NCBI GenBank assembly: GCA_964016885.1 | Contig: OZ024745.1 | Location: 56,482,001 to 56,546,000 of the forward strand | DNA from: Eledone cirrhosa | Lineage: Eukaryota | Length of the DNA: 64,000 nucleotides | Direction of reading: 5' to 3' | In this document: positions 1,077 through 60,066 of the stretch, in pieces | How positions within the stretch are numbered: position 1 is the stretch's first letter | Layout: each line of letters begins with the position of its first letter | Made by a program: the position numbers and the translations under genes | Notes under the pieces: model-generated | What the model was told of the DNA's origin: nothing | The model's database searches: none | Seen by the model: the letters and a program-made list of their open reading frames with translations, nothing else

Positions 1077-1282
1077 AATATATAGGAAAAACAAATACTC
1101 GACGTGAAGTATAGAAAAATGAAGAATTTAATCAAATGTTCGTTTTTAACATATGTTTCAATACAATATAAGTCTACGTAATGCTGGTTGCATAATACTG
1201 TTATTATTATGCACACTCATTAGCAATACATTAAATATTGAATTTCTTCAGAAAGATTTCAAAAAGATTTCAAAGTATCGAC

Positions 1283-5806: not shown

Positions 5807-6185
5807 ATATATATATATATAAGTATATAAGTATATATATATATATGTATGTATTGTGCATACATGTATACATTTATATACGAACGCACACAAACGCACA
5901 CGTATATATATTTATTAAATGTAACAAATTGAGAGACAGGAGCGATATAAAGGTTTATTACGGAAGTTAAGGAAATAATATCTTACGCCGATTTAGTTAT
6001 TCTAGTACTTACTTGTGTAATTGTGTTCTTAGAAAGGTATGCTGGTTATTCAATATATAAATATATATTTCTCTACTTACTCTCCTCTATCTTTCTCATC
6101 CTGCTTTTATTTCATTTTCTTTATGCTGCTGAAGGATTATCGTGTGAATCGTTAAAACTCTTATCCTTCTCTATCAAGCTTCAAA

Positions 6186-6371: not shown

Positions 6372-6673
6372 TTCAAACTAATGTTTTCTTGTGTTGTATT
6401 CCGTTTAACTTTCGCATATATATATATATATGTACGTGTGTACATGCATACATACATACATACACATATTATAAACCGACCAACATATGATCACGAAGCG
6501 TTAGACATTTATATGCCTTATATATTCATTCTGTCATTACTATAACAGAGGTCCGACGAGCATTTGATTCCAGAGTCGGCCCAGATTGCTATAGATCGAA
6601 CTTTGAGCTGATCAATAGCGAAACGCGTGTTACCAATCAATAAACGTAATGTAGGCTAACTTAAATCGTCCTT

Positions 6674-8948: not shown

Positions 8949-11900
8949 ATGACCTCACTCAGAATAGGCAGCATAAATGCGCGTGGCTTGGGGTCGTCAT
9001 GGAAGCAGGGCCACCTGCTCAACGACCTCAGGTCACTAAACATAGATGTAGTGGCCATCAGCGAGACCAGAATCTCCGAAGCACAGGCTTTCGCACCGAT
9101 CTTCGGCGGCTACGATGTGTACGCATCTCCCAGCCGTCCGGGATCGGGGGGAGAAGTTGCTGTGCTTTTTCGGAGAGGTTTGGATCTTGCCATACGGGCC
9201 ATCTTCCTGGACCCAGAAGGTAAGTTGTTGGTACTGGACGTGACCAGCGGAGACGGCCAAGCTTTCAGGTTAGTGGCCCTCTATGCCCCGACAGGAGCAG
9301 GGCAGCCTGATTTCTTCCGGCGTCTGGAGACCTTTCTTGGAACGTCCCGCTCTTTAGTGTTAGTGGGCGACTGGAACGGGATCTTAGATGCACGCTGGGA
9401 TTGTGTGGGATTAGTGGATAGGGAAGGAGGGTGCAAGAGTCTCACCAACCTGCTCAGACGTTTTGAACTGTCTGACAGGTATCGAATGGATTTCCCGAAT
9501 ATACCAATGTGGACTTGGACAAATCGCATAGGGTCATCCAGATCATATCTAGATAGAGTATTTTGTAGGGAAATAGATAGGTCTAGCATAGGCTGTCCAC
9601 AATTCAAGATAGTCAGCTACACGGACCACAAATTCGTGATCTGTGTGCTTGACTTAGATAGGCTTCATAGACGAGGACCCGGCTACTGGAAGCTAAACGC
9701 GTCCTTACCAGCGCGCAAGGCCTACAGAGACCGGATTAGCGAACTAGTTAAGCGGGCGTTGACGGGGGCCTTCGTCAACAACAAGTGGTGGTTTGCTCTG
9801 AAAAGAGCAATTAGAATAGAGTCCATTAGGTTTAGTAAGACTTTAGCAATAAAGAAAAATAGAGCAGAGGGAAAATTAGTTAGAAAATTAGATGAGGCAC
9901 TTAGCAAAGGCATCGCGACCGACGTATTTGCGGCGAAATTGGCCCTTGACCAATTCTTCAATGCAAAGCAGAGGCTGCGTTGTCAGAGCTAGGGTGCGTG
10001 CTCTCAGATACGAGGGGACGAAAGCCGTTCAATGGGCCCGAGTGGCGGAGGCGCGTCGTGGCAACAAAGCCACGATCCGGTCTTTGGTGGACCACGACGG
10101 GCGCATGCTACTCGATCCCGGGAAAATGTGTGAAGCTTTTCAGCGACACTTCGCTCAACTGTTCGGGGGCAGTGGTGGGCCGGATCGAGGGATGGACTTT
10201 AGTGTCTAGCTCGACGGACTGCCGCGGCTTTCGGCCACTGAGGCCGAGTGTTGCGAAAAGCCGATAACAACCACTGAAGTACGGGATGCAATGACTAGTT
10301 GCACAAGGGGTAAATCGCCTGGTTTAGATGGTCTGCCCTATGAACTTTACGTACAAATTCCAAACTTGTTCGGAGGCCTCTTGGCGGACGTCTACTGCAA
10401 CTGGCAACAGAACGGGAGAATTCCCAGCTCTGTGAGCCGAGGAGCGGTGGCGCTGCTGAGAAAGGATCCGAACAAGGGGGATAACATAGATAATTTTAGG
10501 CCCATAACTCTGCTAAACACAGAGTTCAAGATTTTGGCCAAGGTGCTAGCAAAGAGGTTGGCGCTTGTCGTTGGTGGTCTGGTGGGAGAGGCACAGACAT
10601 GCGCCATTCCCGACAGATCCATTCACGATAACCTCCACCTCATGCGATACATCGTAGAGAGGGTAGCTAGGGAACCTGGCACGGGTGGGTCTTTGATCAA
10701 TTTAGATCAGTCGAAAGCCTTCGATAGGGTCGACCATCGTTACCTAGCGGCAGTCCTGAGGGCGGCTGGCTTTGGGCCCGTCTTCAGAGGCTGGATCGCT
10801 GCCATGCACAGCGACATCTGCTCTGTAGTGAGAGTGAACGGTCACCTTTCGGAACCGTTCAACATCATGCGCTCGGTCCGCCAAGGATGTCCCCTCTCGT
10901 CCCTATTGTACGTATTGACTCTCGAGCCATTACTGCACAAACTGGAGACGTTGAGCGGGTCCCGCGCGAACTAGGATGCGGAAGATCCGTGTCAGCATAT
11001 GCCGACGATGTCACCGTAGTTTTGTCGAACGCCAAACACATCGAGGCGATCGGCACTACACTAAGAGAATACGAAGCGGTGACAGGAGCAATGATCAACC
11101 AGGAAAAGTCAGTGGGCCTGCAGCTCGGCACCTGGAGAGGCAGGTCCATGCCGTCCAACAGCGTCGTCGGGCGCTGGACGGACGGACGGGTTAAATTGCT
11201 AGGGGTCTGGTTCGGTCCAGACCTCCAGACGGACAAAAACTGGGACGAGGTGACGAGCAGGGTGGCTTCTCTAACCCAGAAATGGGCCGAGAGGAAGCTA
11301 TCCCTGAAAGGTCGAGCAGAGGTGGCTAACGCGTACATCGCGTCCGTCATCTACTACCGCCTGACCGTCGTACCTTGTCCTAAGCCCCGCCTGACTGCGC
11401 TGGAGCGTCTGCTCTTTCGCTTCTTGTGGAAGGGACGCGCTCCGATGGTCAGGCGGTCCATCTGCTGTCAACACCCGCTACGTGGAGGGTTGGGCATGCC
11501 GTGGCTGATGATGCGCAGACACGCGCTCAAGCTACGACATCTCCACCTCTTCCTCGACGGTGATCAGGTGGGGTCGCCGTTTGCTAGAAACGTTATTCCC
11601 CAGCTCGTCTCCTTGACGGAGCTGCAGTCCTGGGTCAAGCGAAGACCGAGAGGGAGCGCTTGGAGACTGGAATGTCTTCAGGCGCTCACAGCCCTCGACC
11701 AATCGGGCAATGTGATCGGTGGAAACTCCACCTTGGCGTTCTATAGGGGATTAGTGGAGGGGAAGAGCGACGACGTACTTGGAGAAACTCTAGGCGTCGA
11801 CGAAAATCAACTAGCCAATCTCTTCGGAAGGACTTTCGGGCCGGGGCCTATGGACAACTTCCAGATATCCCTGGCCTGGCAGTGCTACCGGGGTGCTTTG

Positions 11901-12365
11901 CCAGTTCGGGATAAACTTTACAGGCATGGAGGTGCCGTCAGCCGGGCATGTCCGAGATGCGCACAGGGCGACAAAACCGTCCTGCACGCACTCGTCCAGT
12001 GTCCGAGCATTGCTGACTTGTGGGTTTATGTCGAACACCTGCTGTCACGTGTAGGACGGATCCAGCTATCAGCTGAGTCCATCGTGAGGATTGCCCCGCC
12101 CTCTTCCTTTAGCCGGGAAGGGCAGGCAGTTTTTATCTGTCTGGTGGCCATGGCGAAAGAGATAGTATGGTGGACACGTTTGAAAGGGCTGAAGACGAGC
12201 ACTTACCTCTTCGGTGATGCCCTGATTAACTTTTTCAAATTTCATCTGAAAAGGAAAATCACGGTAGAGAGGGACGTGCTCTCTTCCCAGCATTTTGTTG
12301 AAAGATGGGTGAGAGAAGCAAGTATGGCCCGAATGAATGGGCCTTCTCTGAGTATGTGTCTGTAA
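8949..12365 (+). pseudogene. Tx1 ORF2 (APE endonuclease, RT, C-terminal Zn finger); 2 frameshifts and 1 stop
   Basis: SINARGL, SET, YAP, GDWN, YLDR, TDH (APE); KSPGLDG, FRPITLLN, DQSKAFDRVDH, RQGCPLS, YADD (RT); CPRC..HAL..C. Breaks near 9970 and 10955; TAG at 10207-10209. Confidence 0.93.
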
Positions 12366-20944: not shown

Positions 20945-21197
20945 ATTAACACTTAACATTTAATATTCTACCATACTATTTCATTCTAATACCATTATAA
21001 ATGTTAAAGGATTGTAAATAAAACGAGTAAATCAGACAAAGTTGGAATTCCTTTTGTTAATATAATATTCTATACACAATCATACACACCCGTGTATATT
21101 TATCTATCTATGTATCTCTCTCTCTCTCTCTCTAATTATATATATATATATAGAGAGTGAGATTACAGTAATCAAAGTTCAGTTTAAGTCATTTATT

Positions 21198-21244
21198 TGC
21201 TTACAATTGTTTCCTCCAAACCGAGGTTTGGATTCTTCGGAGTA
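21198..21244 (-). ncRNA. Hammerhead ribozyme variant (CCGAAGA core)
   Basis: Mirror of 24964-25010. Confidence 0.7.
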
Positions 21245-21915
21245 GCTATTTATAACATACTTGACCTCCTTTTCAACCCAAGAGACACATAAAACATATG
21301 CGCATATTGATCAACAGTGGGGTGACATTCATCAAATGAAATAGCATGGCAATTTACATATAAAGTGTTACATGATAAAAATAAAATAAAATAAAAGCAA
21401 GAGTGAAAATAAAGATAAACATGAAGCGTTGGCAGTCTATGAAGATAAAGCAAGAGGAAAGCTTAGAGTAGTCAGTGCATGAAGCAATCTCCCGTGTAGC
21501 ATGCACGCTTGTCTTATCTATACATGATTAGAGTGCGTCAGAATGATATTTGCAGGGTCAGGCAGTTGAAGCAGGCAATCGATCTTATAATATAGGCTGA
21601 ATTATTAAGTCATTTATTCTCATACATCTGAATGATATACAGTCTCGGATGCGGGGAAACACCAAAATATCAAAAACCTTCAACATACTATAAACCTTAT
21701 TGTATCTTCGGCAAGGTCGTACCACTGTCCTTGCTCACACCACCACTCACATAATCCATGAGACGCAATATATACATAGAGAACACGCGTCTATCGTATA
21801 ATTCGCAGTGGTTCAGCATATAGTCAAGCTATAAACGGTATCCAGTCGTCACTGATTTGGTTGGCCTATACTTACTTAACTAATCCACAGGGAACTTCCG
21901 TACCTCAGCGGTGGT

Positions 21916-23343
21916 TTGTATCGCGATGATGCACTTCTACTTATAGACTATAAAACATTCAATATAGAAAGGACTAGAAAACTATTGCACAAAACATTCA
22001 ACAACTTTAACCTTAGTATTACCATGGACAAAAACACCAAAAACGTCAACTTCCTAGACGCCACACTCTACTTAGACTCAATGATATATGCACCTTTCCA
22101 CAAACCTAATGACAAACTCATCTACGTAGATACCAAGTCTAACCACCCTAAATCTATATTGAACTCTATCTCTAAGGGAGTATCTAATAGAATCTCTAAT
22201 CTATCCTATGACATAAACACATTTAACAATAACTCGCAGTATTATAATCAGGCATTAGCTAGATCAGGCCATAATACAGGGATAGAGTTCCTACCTACAA
22301 AAACACATAGCTACAACATCATTTCACACAACATGTCCATGGGAAAATTTAATAATAAGAATAGCAACTGCACACACACTAATAGGGATTGTAACAACAA
22401 GAGTAACCCGCACCACAGAAATGACCATAGGAACATTAAAGGAAACAAATCACCAGACATAAAAAACAGAAATAGAAGAAGAAATAATACATTTTTCAAC
22501 CCTCCTTTCAATTTAAACGTCTCTACCAACCTTCCTAGGGCTTTCTTCTCACTACTAGATAAACACTTCCCATCCGGCCACAGGTACCACAGCCTTTTAA
22601 ACAAAAACACTATTAAGATCTCATACTCTACTACGCCTAACTTAGCATACCACATAGCTAGTACAAATAAAAGAAAAATTAATTCTTACTTCCAACAAAC
22701 TAAATCACAACGGTCGATAAACCTTCAAAATAACATTCAAAATGACAGTCAAAGTAACATTATAACAAATAACCGTAATATCAATGGAAATAGTAGTAAT
22801 AGCACTAGTGTAAACATTAACGCTGCGTACCACAACCCGCATAACCATAACCCTATAGCTAACCTCCAAACTTCTACACAGCATAGTAACAGGCAGACTA
22901 GCACCCAGAGTAATTGTAACTGTAGATCAAGTAGAACCTGCCCTTTAGATAAAAAATGCTTAACCAAGGATATCATATACTCATGTACAGTCACAACTAA
23001 CAGCTCTTCTGAAACCTACATAGGCTCCACTTCTAACTGCTTCAAAACTAGATACAATTCGCACCTCCACTCTTTCAAAAAACACAGTCTAGCCAACTCC
23101 ACTTCACTATCTAGCTACATACACTATCTAAAAACTAAAAATAAAATATATACACTTAAATGGGAAGTGGTAGGTAGTGCAACATCGTACAAACCACCTG
23201 ATAAATTTTGTAACCTCTGTCTACTAGAGACCCATACTATCATCTTCTCTGAACATAATCTCCTTAATAAAAAATCAGAAGTGTTCGCAAATTGCCAACA
23301 CCGCTTCCGACACTCGTTCCAAAACTTTAAACCCTATATATAA
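21916..23343 (+). CDS. PLE polyprotein C-half: RT (GGLYRDD), thumb, CxC linker, GIY-YIG (probably Hydra clade)
   Basis: YRDD, NFLDATL, SNHP, FFNPPF, HFP, KISYS, CNCRSSRTCPL, IIY..YIGST..FKTRYNSH, CNLC, CQH. Homology begins at 21848 (VTDLVGLYLL) before a frameshift; 5'-truncated, so no true start. Confidence 0.9.
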   Translation: MYRDDALLLIDYKTFNIERTRKLLHKTFNNFNLSITMDKNTKNVNFLDATLYLDSMIYAPFHKPNDKLIYVDTKSNHPKSILNSISKGVSNRISNLSYDINTFNNNSQYYNQALARSGHNTGIEFLPTKTHSYNIISHNMSMGKFNNKNSNCTHTNRDCNNKSNPHHRNDHRNIKGNKSPDIKNRNRRRNNTFFNPPFNLNVSTNLPRAFFSLLDKHFPSGHRYHSLLNKNTIKISYSTTPNLAYHIASTNKRKINSYFQQTKSQRSINLQNNIQNDSQSNIITNNRNINGNSSNSTSVNINAAYHNPHNHNPIANLQTSTQHSNRQTSTQSNCNCRSSRTCPLDKKCLTKDIIYSCTVTTNSSSETYIGSTSNCFKTRYNSHLHSFKKHSLANSTSLSSYIHYLKTKNKIYTLKWEVVGSATSYKPPDKFCNLCLLETHTIIFSEHNLLNKKSEVFANCQHRFRHSFQNFKPYI

Positions 23344-24963
23344 TAATGTCAGACTGGAACCGGCACCACCCCTAGCAATTAACATCAGTAGCACACCTTA
23401 CACCTCACATCCACACCCATCTCTATACTCTAAAGATAATACTGACAGCATTTGAGTGCCACCTACCCTGGGAATACCCCCTTGTACCTCTAATACTGAT
23501 ATCCCGACCGTGGACTACTTATTCTGCATTGCACAAATATAAGATTAGTATAAACTGGGGACACGGTACTGGTTGTGATAGCATAGTCCTGTGCATGGAT
23601 TACCACCAAGAGATAGATTGATGATTAGATAGATAATCGTACTGTTAAGTGAGTATATACTGTAAGCGATCAGTTCATTGAATTATGCACGTAATCATCT
23701 TGATGTGGACTCCCTTAATACCTATTGATAGACTCCACTCTAGCTTGCAGATGTGATACATAATTGATTTATATTTGAGACGGGGGTTGTCTATTACCTG
23801 ATGGCCAGACTAGTGCGTTTATATGAGAGATCGGATCTCCGGACCATACCGAAGATTTACTGGAGATGCAGGCAAGCAATGACCCGGAGCCAACCGGGTG
23901 GCATATATAATAGTGGGACCATACCAGGTCCTACTGTTGTATTACATTTGCATGGAGCAGTGACTTGAGAGTCCGACTCCTCTTATAGAACGTTCAGATA
24001 TGACACCCCTTAATTATTGGTTGGCAATCATCCTAGTATATACACCCTTGTACTTCTTAATGAACAACTCTCTAACTTATAAATGGGTACCATACTCTAG
24101 ATATTAGTTATAACTTCACATGATAGGCACGTATTTGAATCACCATTAATGTAGTTTAGCATAGTAATGTAACTAAAATAACTAGCTAGTTACCTCCCCT
24201 TACGCATTAATTCCCCTTAATCATTCAGGCACTTCCGGAATTTGGACAGCATGATATATTAATTAAGAACCGACTGGATACCGTTTATAGCTTGACTATA
24301 TGCTGAACCACTGCGAATTATACGATAGACGCGTGTTCTCTATGTATATATTGCGTCTCATGGATTATGTGAGTGGTGGTGTGAGCAAGGACAGTGGTAC
24401 GACCTTGCCGAAGATACAATAAGGTTTATAGTATGTTGAAGGTTTTTGATATTTTGGTGTTTCCCCGCATCCGAGACTGTATATCATACAGATGTATGAG
24501 AATAAATGACTTAATAATTCAGCCTATATTATAAGATCGATTTTGGTGTTTCCCCGCATCCGAGACTGTATATCATACAGATGTATGAGAATAAATGACT
24601 TAATAATTCAGCCTATATTATAAGATCGATTGCCTGCTTCAACTGCCTGACCCTGCAAATATCATTCTGACGCACTCTAATCATGTATAGATAAGACAAG
24701 CGTGCATGCTACACGGGAGATTGCTTCATGCACTGACTACTCTAAGCTTTCCTCTTGCTTTATCTTCATAGACTGCCAACGCTTCATGTTTATCTTTATT
24801 TTCACTCTTGCTTTTATTTTATTTTATTTTTATCATGTAACACTTTATATGTAAATTGCCATGCTATTTCATTTGATGAATGTCACCCCACTGTTGATCA
24901 ATATGCGTATATGTTTTATGTGTCTCTTGGGTTGAAAAGGAGGTCAAGTATGTTATAAATAGC

Positions 24964-25010
24964 TGCTCGGAAGAATCCAAACCTCGGTTTGGAGGAAACA
25001 ATTGTAAGCA
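24964..25010 (+). ncRNA. Hammerhead ribozyme variant (CGGAAGA core)
   Basis: TGCT-CGGAAGA-A-TCCAAAC-ctcg-GTTTGGA-G-GAAAC-aatt-GTA-AGCA then AATAAA; palindromic ACAATTGT stem III. Confidence 0.75.
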
Positions 25011-25216
25011 AATAAATGACTTAAACTGAACTTTGATTACTGTAATCTCTATATAACTGCTCTGTATAACAACTGATGTTATTACATTGAGCTATTTAAC
25101 TTACTGGTAATAGGATAGTAATTAGAGACTATCTCTCACTATTTAGGGTTTGTGTATATATAATATATTACCATCAAAGGTTTTATTGCATACATAACCA
25201 TAAATAGTACCCTTAA

Positions 25217-26376: not shown

Positions 26377-26433
26377 TATATAAAATAAATTAAAATAAAT
26401 AAGTCAAACATTTAAAATGTGGCTTCGTTTATT

Positions 26434-26490
26434 ACTGCTATATATATATTTCGGTGACAGCCATCTTTGGCTGTGACCTCTTCAGGCAGT
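26434..26490 (-). ncRNA. Type I hammerhead ribozyme, apparently intact
   Basis: ACTGC-CTGAAGA-GGTCACAGCC-aaagat-GGCTGTCACC-GAAA-TATATATA-TA-GCAGT, then AATAAA. Confidence 0.9.
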
Positions 26491-26730
26491 CCGAATTAGT
26501 TTGGTAGAGACGAGTACACATGTTGTTGAGGTGTTTAACTTTGTCAATACTCTGATATGCCCAGTTCCTGGTTGGGTTGTTGTTTCTATGAGGAACTGGA
26601 ATCATATGAACTGGAATCATATGATTCCAGTTCCTCATAGAAACAACAACCCAACTAGGAACTGGGCATATCAGAGTATTGACAAAGTTAAACACCTCAA
26701 TGTGTCCTCGTCTCTACCACACTCATTCGG

Positions 26731-26785
26731 ACTGCCTGAAGAGGTCACAGCCAAAGATGGCTGTCACTGAAATATATATAGCACT
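26731..26785 (+). ncRNA. Type I hammerhead ribozyme (mirror copy)
   Basis: ACTGC-CTGAAGA-GGTCACAGCC-aaagat-GGCTGTCACT-GAAA-TATATA-TA-GCACT, then AATAAA. Confidence 0.85.
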
Positions 26786-26930
26786 AATAAACGAAGCCAC
26801 ATTTTAAATATTTGACTTATTTATTTTAATTTATTTTACATTACTCCGGAGTAACCAAACCAACCTGCGCACTTCGTCGAGTGCTCCAATCTGCATAATG
26901 AGGTGTCGGTAAACAACCAACATATACTCA

Positions 26931-42021: not shown

Positions 42022-42056
42022 CCTCCGAAGAAGAGATATTATCTCGAAAATTAAGG
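42022..42056 (+). ncRNA. Minimal hammerhead variant (CCGAAGA core)
   Basis: CCT-CCGAAGA-A-GAGAT-att-ATCTC-GAAA-AT-TA-AGG, AATAAA 8 nt later. Confidence 0.65.
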
Positions 42057-56476: not shown

Positions 56477-56566
<90 letters not shown>

Positions 56567-56609
56567 AATTAAAAGAACAGAAAGATGCAGTAAAAGAGAT
56601 TTATTCGGT

Positions 56610-56724
56610 TCTTACGTACGTTTCAATAGACATCAATTTGCCTAGATCTCGCTGCATCTATAATATTATATAGTTAGTAGAGCATTCGACATCCAATGCA
56701 CAATCGATCCCATATCATCAGAGA
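56610..56724 (-). ncRNA. Hammerhead with 90-nt stem II domain
   Basis: Mirror of 59177-59291 with a better-paired basal stem II (ATGGGATCGATT/AATTGATGTCTAT). Confidence 0.78.
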
Positions 56725-57095
56725 TTATGTTTACCGCACCAGAATGTTCAGGTTTTTATAGGAATTCATGTGAAGTTGAAGTAGAGAAGAAGGAGGATGT
56801 GACAAAGACGAGAGAGATAGGGGGGTTTTTCATAGTTGTTGAGGTAAAACAGAGGGGAGGATAAAATATGATAATGAAGTCTAGATATGGACTAGTCCAA
56901 CTGTGTGTGTGTGCTAGAGAGATGGTAGACGTTGATAGGTTTACGATCTATGATAGATGGAGGCAGGGGAGATTAGGTTGAGTGACTTGTAAAGTATGTA
57001 GGAGGAGATGTTGAATAGGGGAGATGTGGTTAATAGAAGGCATAGCAATAATCCATGGGGATAGATAGAGGAGGTAGAAGGAAGAAGTCGCAGGA

Positions 57096-58666: not shown

Positions 58667-59176
58667 TTATGGAGCTATTTTACATACTAAAATCCAATTA
58701 TACTCTTCTCAACAACAGAACGGAAAAAACTCTATATTGCAATCACAGACTCAAGGCTACGTTCTCGAAATACAAACCTGGCTTGATTTGATCCTGCGAC
58801 TTCTGCTTTCTTCTATCTTCCTTCTACCTCCTCTATCTATCCCCATGGATTATTGCTATGCCTTCTATTAACCACATCTCCCCTATTCGACATCTCCTCC
58901 TACATACTTTACAAGTCACTCGACCTAATCTCCCCTGCCTCCATCTATCATAGATCGTAAACCTATCAACGTCTAGCATCTCTCTAGCACACACACACAG
59001 TTGGACTAGTCCATATCTAGACTTCATTATCATATTTTATCCTCCCCTCTGTTTTACCTCAACAACTATGAAAAACCCCCCTATCTCTCTCGTCTTTGTC
59101 ACATCCTCCTTCTTCTCTACTTCAACTTCACATGAATTCCTATAAAAACCTGAACATTCTGGTGCGGTAAACATAA

Positions 59177-59291
59177 TCTCTGATGATATGGGATCGATTG
59201 TGCATTGGATGTCGAATGCTCTACTAACTATATAATATTATAGATGCAGCGAGATCTAGGCAAACTGATTTCTATTGAAACGTACGTAAGA
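59177..59291 (+). ncRNA. Hammerhead with 90-nt stem II domain
   Basis: TCT-CTGATGA-[59187-59276]-GAAAC-gtac-GTA-AGA, AATAAA 5 nt later; palindromic ACGTACGT stem III. Confidence 0.78.
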
Positions 59292-59497
59292 ACCGAATAA
59301 ATCTCTTTTACTGCATCTTTCTGTTCTTTTTAATTTTTTATACACGCCCCGGAATATAGCTAAACTGGGATATACACCTATTTTCTGCATTACGTTGAGC
59401 ACCACTCTGTTGTAAGCTGACATTCCCCTACACGGTACATAACACTGTGTCCTGGAAAACATTAATGCACTCGTGCATAACCAATTATATATATACA

Positions 59498-59763
59498 ATA
59501 ATTGTTTCTACTTTTGGCACCAGGCCAGCAATTATCCCAGTGCTTTACTGGTACTTTATTTATATATATACAATAATTGTTTCTACTTTTGGCACAAGGC
59601 CAGCAATTACCCAGTGCATTACTGGTATTTTATTTTATCGACCCCGTAAGGATGAAAGGCAAAGTTAACCTCGGCGGGATTTGAACTCCGAATGGCAAGG
59701 GCCGTAACTCTATGCGTCAAAGCATGGCGTCCGACCCTCTACCGATACTGCCAATCCACCTCC
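59498..59763 (-). mobile_element. SINE with duplicated 3' end and target duplication
   Basis: Full copy 59573-59763 flanked by ttatatatatacaataat on both sides; extra 3' piece at 59498-59560. Confidence 0.9.
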
Positions 59764-60066
59764 TTTATATATATACAATAATGAGAGGTACACATATATT
59801 GGTGACTGCTTTCAAGCTAATACTATATACACTCCAGTCTTCCTTACCACCCGTTCTGTAGCCTCTGCATTGTATTAATATCCCCTCAGCCTTCCGTGAT
59901 ACTTTTCGTTGCTACAAGGGATTTAGCTCCATTTCTTGACCTCTGTATCACGTGATAGGGTCTCCCTACACCCTCTCGAGATTCTTTCGCGCGATGCAGA
60001 CCTGTTTTGAAATTTGTACATCAGGTATTCTCTTGATAAGTCAGCAAACCTCACAAAAATGCTCCA

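Follow-up and report, generated by a model that had tools for sequence, protein, structure and literature searches.

A hammerhead-type core with a long, conserved helix II arm in the pseudo-LTR of a Penelope-like retroelement from Eledone cirrhosa

Hammerheads in the pseudo-LTRs (pLTRs) of Penelope-like elements (PLEs) are already known, and the closest described relatives of the motif studied here are those of the Hydra clade. These type I hammerheads lie near the 3' end of a (TA)n-inserting element and combine a CUGANGA/GAAAC core with a frequent U.U at 10.1-11.1 and a short self-complementary helix III (Craig et al. 2021, PMC8557442, File S2). In all 26 rows listed there, including Hydra-1_oBim, helix II comprises 3-7 bp with a loop of 3-10 nt. 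Minimal PLE hammerheads are likewise located in the pLTR, with a weak palindromic helix III suited to dimers and a short helix I; the helix II termed 'larger than usual' in that account comprises 6-8 bp, and its description includes no accessory domain (Cervera and de la Pena 2014, PMC4209133). Among the PLE hammerheads in the literature covered, the longest spacers are found in the spike-moss PLE-X1, where the core halves lie ~52-54 nt apart, beyond the descriptors, and in eight 'HHR_half_core' Naiads with 35-50 nt, two of them from cephalopods (PMC8557442). Both resemble the form described below, but they belong to other PLE clades and have shorter spacers, and the passages on them report no conserved spacer structure or motif. 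In the Anolis Poseidon element PAc, the element has two fixed ends with a tail between them, both a short way downstream of the ribozyme, and the uncleaved RNA is the insertion template (Frangieh et al. 2024, PMC11167929). Its helix II is compact and overlaps the ORF start, unlike the arrangement in E. cirrhosa.

The long-arm form shares the location, core and weak helix III of these ribozymes. It differs from the Hydra-clade hammerheads in a spacer of 60-127 nt and, in families with 78-97-nt inserts, in two conserved internal loops. It is a real variant, found lineage-wide, that carries a conserved accessory RNA domain in helix II. No description of a 60-127-nt helix II or of twin loops was found in the parts of the literature covered, which included bioRxiv 10.64898/2026.07.22.740005, PMC6962438, PMC7761336 and PMC7229834; an earlier mention is possible in Lunse et al., in Arkhipova et al. 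2017 (Terminons), in supplements or in Repbase/Dfam annotations. A long insertion also splits the core of the mammalian Clec2 discontinuous hammerhead, located in a 3' UTR, but that ribozyme is of type III and carries 150-1500 nt in helix I of a host gene (PMC6155905). A Clec2-type hammerhead was rejected for 59177-59291, which has type I order and a structured, conserved extension in helix II.

The window is the whole 64,000-nt stretch of E. cirrhosa DNA that was analysed, from a genome of ~3.0 Gb. Positions within the core follow the usual hammerhead numbering. The initial annotation had described a split hammerhead with perfect core halves, a UCU/AGA helix I, helix III, a 90-nt spacer and a following AATAAA, present in both arms of an inverted repeat. 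All of these parts are present in both arms, in the type I order CUGANGA ... GAAA ... UH (Table 1). The left arm is the sense pLTR and the arm with 59177-59291 the inverted one; the arms span 527 nt and are 98% complementary. The plus-strand copy is antisense to the ORF and carries two private substitutions.

Table 1. Coordinates of the long-arm hammerhead, its host element and two further long-arm copies in the window
Feature	Position	Strand	Details
Helix I 5' strand UCU	59177-59179	+	Inverted-arm copy; read from sequence
Predicted distal helix I strand CGGU	59165-59168	+	Partner 59292-59295 across 8-nt bulge; constrained fold of left-arm copy, without covariation
Core 5' half CUGAUGA	59180-59186	+	
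90-nt helix II extension	59187-59276	+	U.U at 10.1-11.1, a basal helix with covariation, two internal loops that are conserved, an apical hairpin that varies
UGC helix strand with the 5' strand of loop 1 (AUU)	59201-59206	+	Partners UAG 59257-59259 and GCA 59260-59262; flanks C-G/U-A and G-C/A-U, paired 13/13
UCG helix strand and loop 2 5' strand (AAU)	59212-59217	+	Partners CAG 59247-59249 and CGA 59250-59252; C-G/U-A switch, paired 13/13
3' sides of loop 2, loop 1 and the helices beside them	59247-59262	+	
GAAAC	59277-59281	+	Core 3' half, then GUAC loop
Core 3' half GAAAC, palindromic helix III ACGUACGU and cut-site triplet GUA	59277-59288	+	Self-duplex -9.8 kcal/mol
Cut-site triplet GUA	59286-59288	+	Predicted cut after 59288
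Helix I 3' strand AGA	59289-59291	+	
AATAAA	59296-59301	+	Equivalent position in long-arm and compact families seen; most search patterns demanded AATAAA
Sense-orientation long-arm hammerhead, downstream of ORF	56610-56724	-	Predicted cut between 56613 and 56612; 90 bits with covariance model
Inverted 5' arm: ORF end, 3' UTR, hammerhead, tail	58668-59486	+	
3' UTR and pLTR, terminal (TA)n tract	56559-57095	-	
5'-truncated ORF, 527 residues	57096-58679	-	RT C-terminal half, CxCX5C linker, GIY-YIG-type endonuclease with CxxC and CxH
~147-nt tail between two fixed element ends	59343-59486	+	5' UTR; stops ~47 nt before ATG in full-length copy
Long-arm hammerhead of an unrelated-looking family, 85-nt helix II with both loops	1135-1259	-	46.1 bits, rough E 2e-6; absent from model building
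60-nt helix II type, single AGU/GAG loop, core CCGACGA	6545-6644 (6553)	+	

Judged from its sequence, the core belongs to the pLTR of a young PLE with Hydra-clade motifs. The motif set of this clade comprises RWK, DKT, CxCX5C and, at the C-terminal end, a GIY-YIG domain with CxxC and CxH (PMC8557442, section 11). Full-length frames of families A and B (the family letters are labels coined in this analysis, and A is the family of 59177-59291) carry RWS (A) or RWK (B), followed in both by DKT, YRDD, CxCX5C, YIG, CxxC and CxH. The truncated ORF is 95.6% identical to residues 275-798 of the full-length frame, and an intact 780-residue ORF exists elsewhere in the genome. The element protein was aligned by eye with the published Hydra-1_Obim protein over the first ~400 residues of the latter; its best relatives outside this genome are 27-42% identical, and Pfam and PDB sequence searches with it returned nothing significant. 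Insertion into (TA)n, the pLTR and the inverted 5'-truncated arm are also as in the Hydra clade, and the unit length of ~3.08 kb (family A) or ~3.18 kb (family B) lies slightly above its norm of generally <3 kb.

The element has two fixed ends, 53 and ~200 nt downstream of the cut site. Of 63 distinct (TA)n ends, the first site accounts for 31 and the second for 27, to which the 59177-59291 copy adds one more. The sites are ~147 nt apart, and the tail between them falls in the 5' UTR, as compared with a PLE tail given as 30-40 nt (PMC11167929). The arrangement parallels the Anolis PLE, with its tail and its pair of sites at which RT starts (PMC11167929). (TA)n junctions are also present in contigs from three runs of one sample of unrecorded kind, which carry no information on expression. 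In tandems, the long arm forms both the 3' UTR and the 5' leader. A non-LTR retrozyme, that is, a non-coding short tandem repeat, was considered and rejected, as a PLE endonuclease lies upstream in families A, B, C, D, H, J, K and M; none was found in the flanks examined for families E, I and N.

Genome-wide searches showed that the core is not a chance match, with 530 exact matches to its pattern and 0 for the reversed control. A metagenome scan with the core pattern gave six matches, all lacking stem I and the helix II base and attributed to chance. Broader exact patterns, which combined both core halves with a helix III loop of four bases and AATAAA, yielded 2,505 matches for a GUA or GUU site with a 70-100-nt spacer (reversed control 0), 1,740 for a GUC site with 85-114 nt (control 4) and 3,019 for a GUC site with 55-84 nt (control 3); the three sets may overlap slightly. 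When the GUA site was combined with other spacer lengths, there were 11 matches with 10-39 nt, 26 with 40-69 nt and 28 with 101-130 nt, most of which derive from deletion or duplication. Dominance of the long form is not claimed because these patterns omit compact hammerheads with other helix III shapes. A DNA search returned 423 candidates, of which the 40 scored were all 96-100% identical.

Families were sorted among the matches listed (100 per pattern). In that set the insert measures 90 nt in families A and H, 85 in B, 86-96 in D, 78 in C, 79-83 in J, K, L and M, 97 in O (one copy), 59-63 in E and I, and 65 in N; singletons with 108-127-nt spacers also occur. Where compared, endonucleases are 37-72% identical between families, the exception being B and D, which form a close pair (84-88%). 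In the endonuclease tree, a branch with support 100/99 separates the long-arm families from the compact-hammerhead element of the window together with twelve external homologues; only this split was used because two tree rows without endonuclease misplace the root. Family copies also dispose of a copy-specific foreign insertion, as the 90-nt insert is present in 31/31 aligned copies and the domain is kept across families. Since pattern searches select for the core, loci picked by protein similarity alone were checked as well, and an intact core follows the endonuclease in 10/10 of them (three families).

Old single copies with 108-127-nt spacers (L117, L120, L121, L122, L130, L131 and L140) have a 3-5-bp helix I and a paired helix II base, and no endonuclease was detected in the flanks of these singletons. 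At L158:1500-2000, two family A deletion copies lie 437 nt apart. In these copies the arm was lost through a microhomology and helix II is a compact 23 nt, which makes them a natural arm-less control.

Standard models miss the long-arm form, as the initial annotation had anticipated. Rfam was blank at both 59177-59291 and 56610-56724 (E<=1), and the Rfam models Hammerhead_1 and HH9 gave no match at E<=0.05 on long-arm copies of further loci; compact hammerheads in those loci were found by Rfam at 33.9 and 38.6 bits, just below gathering. A descriptor demanding a 10.1-11.1 pair also overlooks the 59177-59291 core. In family A this position is a U.U that closes helix II, a known natural hammerhead variant (PMC3088659, PMC8557442).

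The fold of the insert was examined on single sequences and on alignments. The initial annotation had proposed an accessory RNA domain with a multibranched form. The domain itself stands, being a structured insert within a pLTR hammerhead core that is family- and lineage-wide; the multibranch does not. The minimum free energy (MFE) structure is one irregular rod, with z scores of -2.5 and -3.0 for the two inserts. The proposed sub-hairpins have pair probabilities of 0.0 (GCAUU/AAUGC) and ~0.1 (CUAUA/UAUAG), and forcing the two-hairpin fold costs 8.4 and 8.7 kcal/mol relative to the MFE. The alignment rejects it as well, with the outer GCAUU/AAUGC pair broken in 9/12 sequences and the middle pair in 5/12. 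The two pairs of that model that are invariant arise because both loops share a quasi-palindromic A-N-U strand, and there is a small chance that an alternative hairpin forms between the two A-N-U strands. In contrast, the UGC/GCA helix, listed only as possible, has a pair probability of 0.86-1.0 and shows compensatory changes. A shifted register of loop 1, with the UUGGAU/AUCUAG pairing of the MFE, is disfavoured because family H pairs in the unshifted register only.

Covariation across family copies, which had been suggested as a check, was found for the rod pairs. On a plain MAFFT alignment of 21 representatives, RNAalifold recovered the basal helix unaided, with compensatory changes in 6/6 pairs, as expected of a hammerhead helix II adjoining the core; it predicted nothing beyond this helix, in a region where B, D, L and O were misaligned. 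For the rod model, on a MAFFT alignment not fitted to structure (12 well-aligned representatives), 86.8% of cells are paired and 20 double changes occur, as compared with 28-46% of cells paired in slid-register controls. In shuffles that ignore kinship, 0/500 reached the observed score on three of five measures, and 24 and 161 of 500 did so on the other two. G-U pairs outnumber A-C pairs by 8 to 2, which favours the sense RNA strand. These long-range compensatory changes, the G-U bias and the fixed loop spacing across families argue against neutral growth or a DNA-level element, such as pLTR promoter motifs that merely resemble RNA structure. We regard that explanation as highly improbable, even though the pLTR carries the promoter in other PLEs (PMC6765202) and the folding of a single insert exceeds that of its shuffles only to a moderate degree (z -1.4 to -2.9; 0.1 in the 60-nt type).

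What is new in the rod is a pair of 3x3 internal loops, each with A-N-U opposite Y-A-G, which lie about one helical turn apart and are kept in at least nine families. Their forms are 5'-A[U/A]U/UAG and 5'-G A[G/A/U]U/YAG C, spaced by 10-12 nt on one strand and 9-10 nt on the other. A parse by sequence only found both loops, each unique, in 13/13 representatives. At three flanking positions every one of the 13 has a canonical pair, which switches between C-G and U-A or between G-C and A-U (p 0.0007, 0.013 and 0.0007 by permutation, uncorrected for kinship). One of these switches separates subfamilies B2 and B3, whose endonucleases are 94-95% identical. Mapped by eye on the endonuclease tree, independent compensatory events number ~2-3 per position, which is a small number. 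An earlier loop parse failed in 4/21 chosen copies, each of which has a substitution in a loop or its closing G.

Both loops are present in 155/179 distinct inserts of 70-100 nt, a set dominated by three families, as compared with 0.1% of shuffles; the flanks pair in 153, 142 and 152 of these 155. Among longer inserts, 6/20 have both loops, and among inserts of 55-69 nt, 0/45. Loop-less deletion forms occur at single loci only. When families B, D, L and O were left out of model building, the resulting model recovered them together with the new window copy at 1135-1259, and it gave no scores on five metagenome chance loci. The SECIS consensus is a UGAN/NGAN quartet with an in-frame UGA. A SECIS element was rejected here, since the loops are ANU/YAG with no UGA/GA-type quartet and full-length frames have no in-frame stop.

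The unpaired loop bases remain constant while the endonucleases diverge to 37-72% identity between families. Their constancy at one-turn spacing points to a surface for recognition, in the simplest case by the element's own protein. In the reading we favour, which on sequence evidence we would place slightly short of an even chance, this is a type I hammerhead in a PLE pLTR whose helix II has become an irregular hairpin of 78-97 nt, which is conserved and has two matching loops as likely binding sites of the element's RT-endonuclease. Tandem read-through RNA would be the setting in which the protein meets the arm. The protein, possibly dimeric, would grip both loops on one helical face beside the internal RT start sites, and its binding might hold or chaperone a weak junction with a 3-bp helix I, a 2-bp palindromic helix III and a U.U closing pair. 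On this view the RNA would cleave slowly and in dependence on a dimer or on the protein, and an individual insertion could do without the cut.

A more specific version is a possibility that we hold only tentatively. Helix II would have turned into a protein-recognition domain in which an RT dimer reads the two identical loops, and a protein-gated ribozyme would mark the RNA for reverse transcription and cut only inside the RNP. In Anolis, the PLE hammerhead cleaves only with the element's protein, for which a dimer is predicted, and RT has two start sites, both a short way downstream of the ribozyme (PMC11167929). RNA of that element truncated to +20, with most of helix II lost, still supports insertion (PMC11167929), and therefore helix II is not the RT-binding site in that clade. 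Three further points count against protein binding in general: the distance between loops and core varies from 15 to 26 nt, families with 60-65-nt inserts thrive although they have at most one loop, and most published Hydra-clade elements have compact ribozymes (PMC8557442).

The variable distance also bears on the idea that the long helix II serves the ribozyme itself, with loops docking on helix I or on a dimer partner in place of the usual loop 1-loop 2 contact. Helix I-helix II contacts make natural hammerheads fast (PMC3088659), a helix I extension beyond a bulge is predicted in families A, B, C, J, K and M, and helix III, which in family A has 2 bp and a palindromic loop, forms a perfect palindrome in families A, C, H, J, K and L (predicted self-duplex -6.4 to -9.8 kcal/mol). 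Docking nevertheless seems unlikely to us, as 15-26 nt is long as well as variable for a fixed contact, the loops are fully kept in family H despite its broken helix I, and no conserved partner sequence was seen in helix I.

Loops that stay constant while the endonuclease diverges to <45% identity are also what a slowly evolving host partner would produce. The arm would then be a cis-regulatory, RT-independent element beside AATAAA, bound by a host protein for export, stability, 3'-end processing or translation control. The AATAAA that begins 4-9 nt past the predicted cut site, and the position of the arm as 3' UTR and 5' leader in tandems, fit such a role. No Rfam family matches the arm, the SECIS-type quartet and in-frame stop are absent as noted above, and no host factor can be named as a candidate; we consider a host partner rather improbable, and binding by the element's own protein remains our preferred interpretation.

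With regard to catalysis the evidence is mixed, and we think it somewhat more likely than not that family A would cleave in some context. Its helix I is only 3 bp; it closes the junction and covaries across families, and U2.1-A1.1 is invariant in 21/21 aligned representatives. The core bases C3, G5, A6, G8, A9, GAAAC and GUH are retained in 10/10 protein-selected loci, and position 17 is A, C or U in 53 family A copies and in other families (search patterns excluded G). This persistence, the covariation of helix I and the slow cleavage as dimers of published PLE hammerheads with similarly weak stems (PMC4209133) make it very doubtful that the core is a catalytically dead or nearly dead relic, with the junction kept only as a structural RNP scaffold. 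Several observations do fit such a relic. The hammerhead-competent monomer fold lies 3-16 kcal/mol above the MFE. Most young family A copies have a GUU site (GTAC followed by T in 36 and by A in 15, n=53); the variable base is position 17. Most of the 1,740 matches, judged among the matches listed, belong to family H, which is the largest young family observed; it has a GUC site and a helix I broken at the second pair, and core position 4 is often C in families M and I. The break in H and the C in M and I suggest that catalysis may be decaying. L203 and family H have a single direct helix I pair, yet both helix II loops are intact.

Truncation ends were examined in 69 family B/D rows without an upstream core. 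They fall exactly at the scissile bond in 1/29 distinct scripted copies and, by eye, in 6/39 of the remaining rows, of which one is a likely duplicate and two form a mirrored pair. Neighbouring positions have similar counts, so that the cut site does not stand out as a clear peak. In L304 and two further truncated family B copies, the helix I 3' side is joined to sense-strand sequence immediately upstream of the core, as would result from an RT template switch across helix I.

The role of hammerheads in PLEs, and the way in which a telomerase-related RT recognises its own RNA, are open questions. The twin-loop domain, of which a single genome holds compact, one-loop, two-loop and deletion forms as natural variants, offers exact mutations for the existing in vitro PLE system. 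Moreover, ~7,000 hammerhead-type motifs in one animal genome can evade Rfam models and short-loop descriptors, and PLEs reported with 'no canonical hammerhead' or a 'half core' may therefore merit re-examination.

Other families in the window had been described as carrying compact hammerheads. This holds for those at 480-, 21240-, 24968+, 26485-, 26736+ and 42677+, but two further long ones are present, at 1135-1259 and 6553. The 60-nt family I (6553+; L230-L254, L273 and L274) is abundant, and its copies often start a mere 15-30 nt before the core; a short non-autonomous element with little beyond ribozyme and tail is a possible explanation. A second PLE of like protein type spans 21159-25049, with an ORF at 21880-23343, an endonuclease 35-36% identical and inverted arms; its compact hammerhead has the core CCGAAGA in one arm and CGGAAGA in the other. 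At 26420-26840, a fold-back pair of short pLTRs carries a compact hammerhead in each (26-nt helix II, (UA)n helix III). An Rfam match to MIR807 in this region was rejected as spurious, being produced by the central palindrome. At 480 (-), 42025 (+) and 42677 (+), compact hammerhead-like cores precede AATAAA and a short tail; that at 42025 is doubtful.

Directly upstream of the 1135-1259 hammerhead, the minus strand of positions 1285-2700 carries degenerate C/A-rich repeats with a 9-nt unit over ~1.4 kb, and a PLE RT fragment lies in reverse orientation at 2731-2922. A 545-residue frame at 10728-12365 (+), with weak RVT_1 and zf-RVT matches, is probably a LINE-type element. Past the right end of the family A element, 59497-59766 belongs to a dispersed repeat family with a 75-nt local duplication, which is also found at 6185, 35983, 40449 and 53265.
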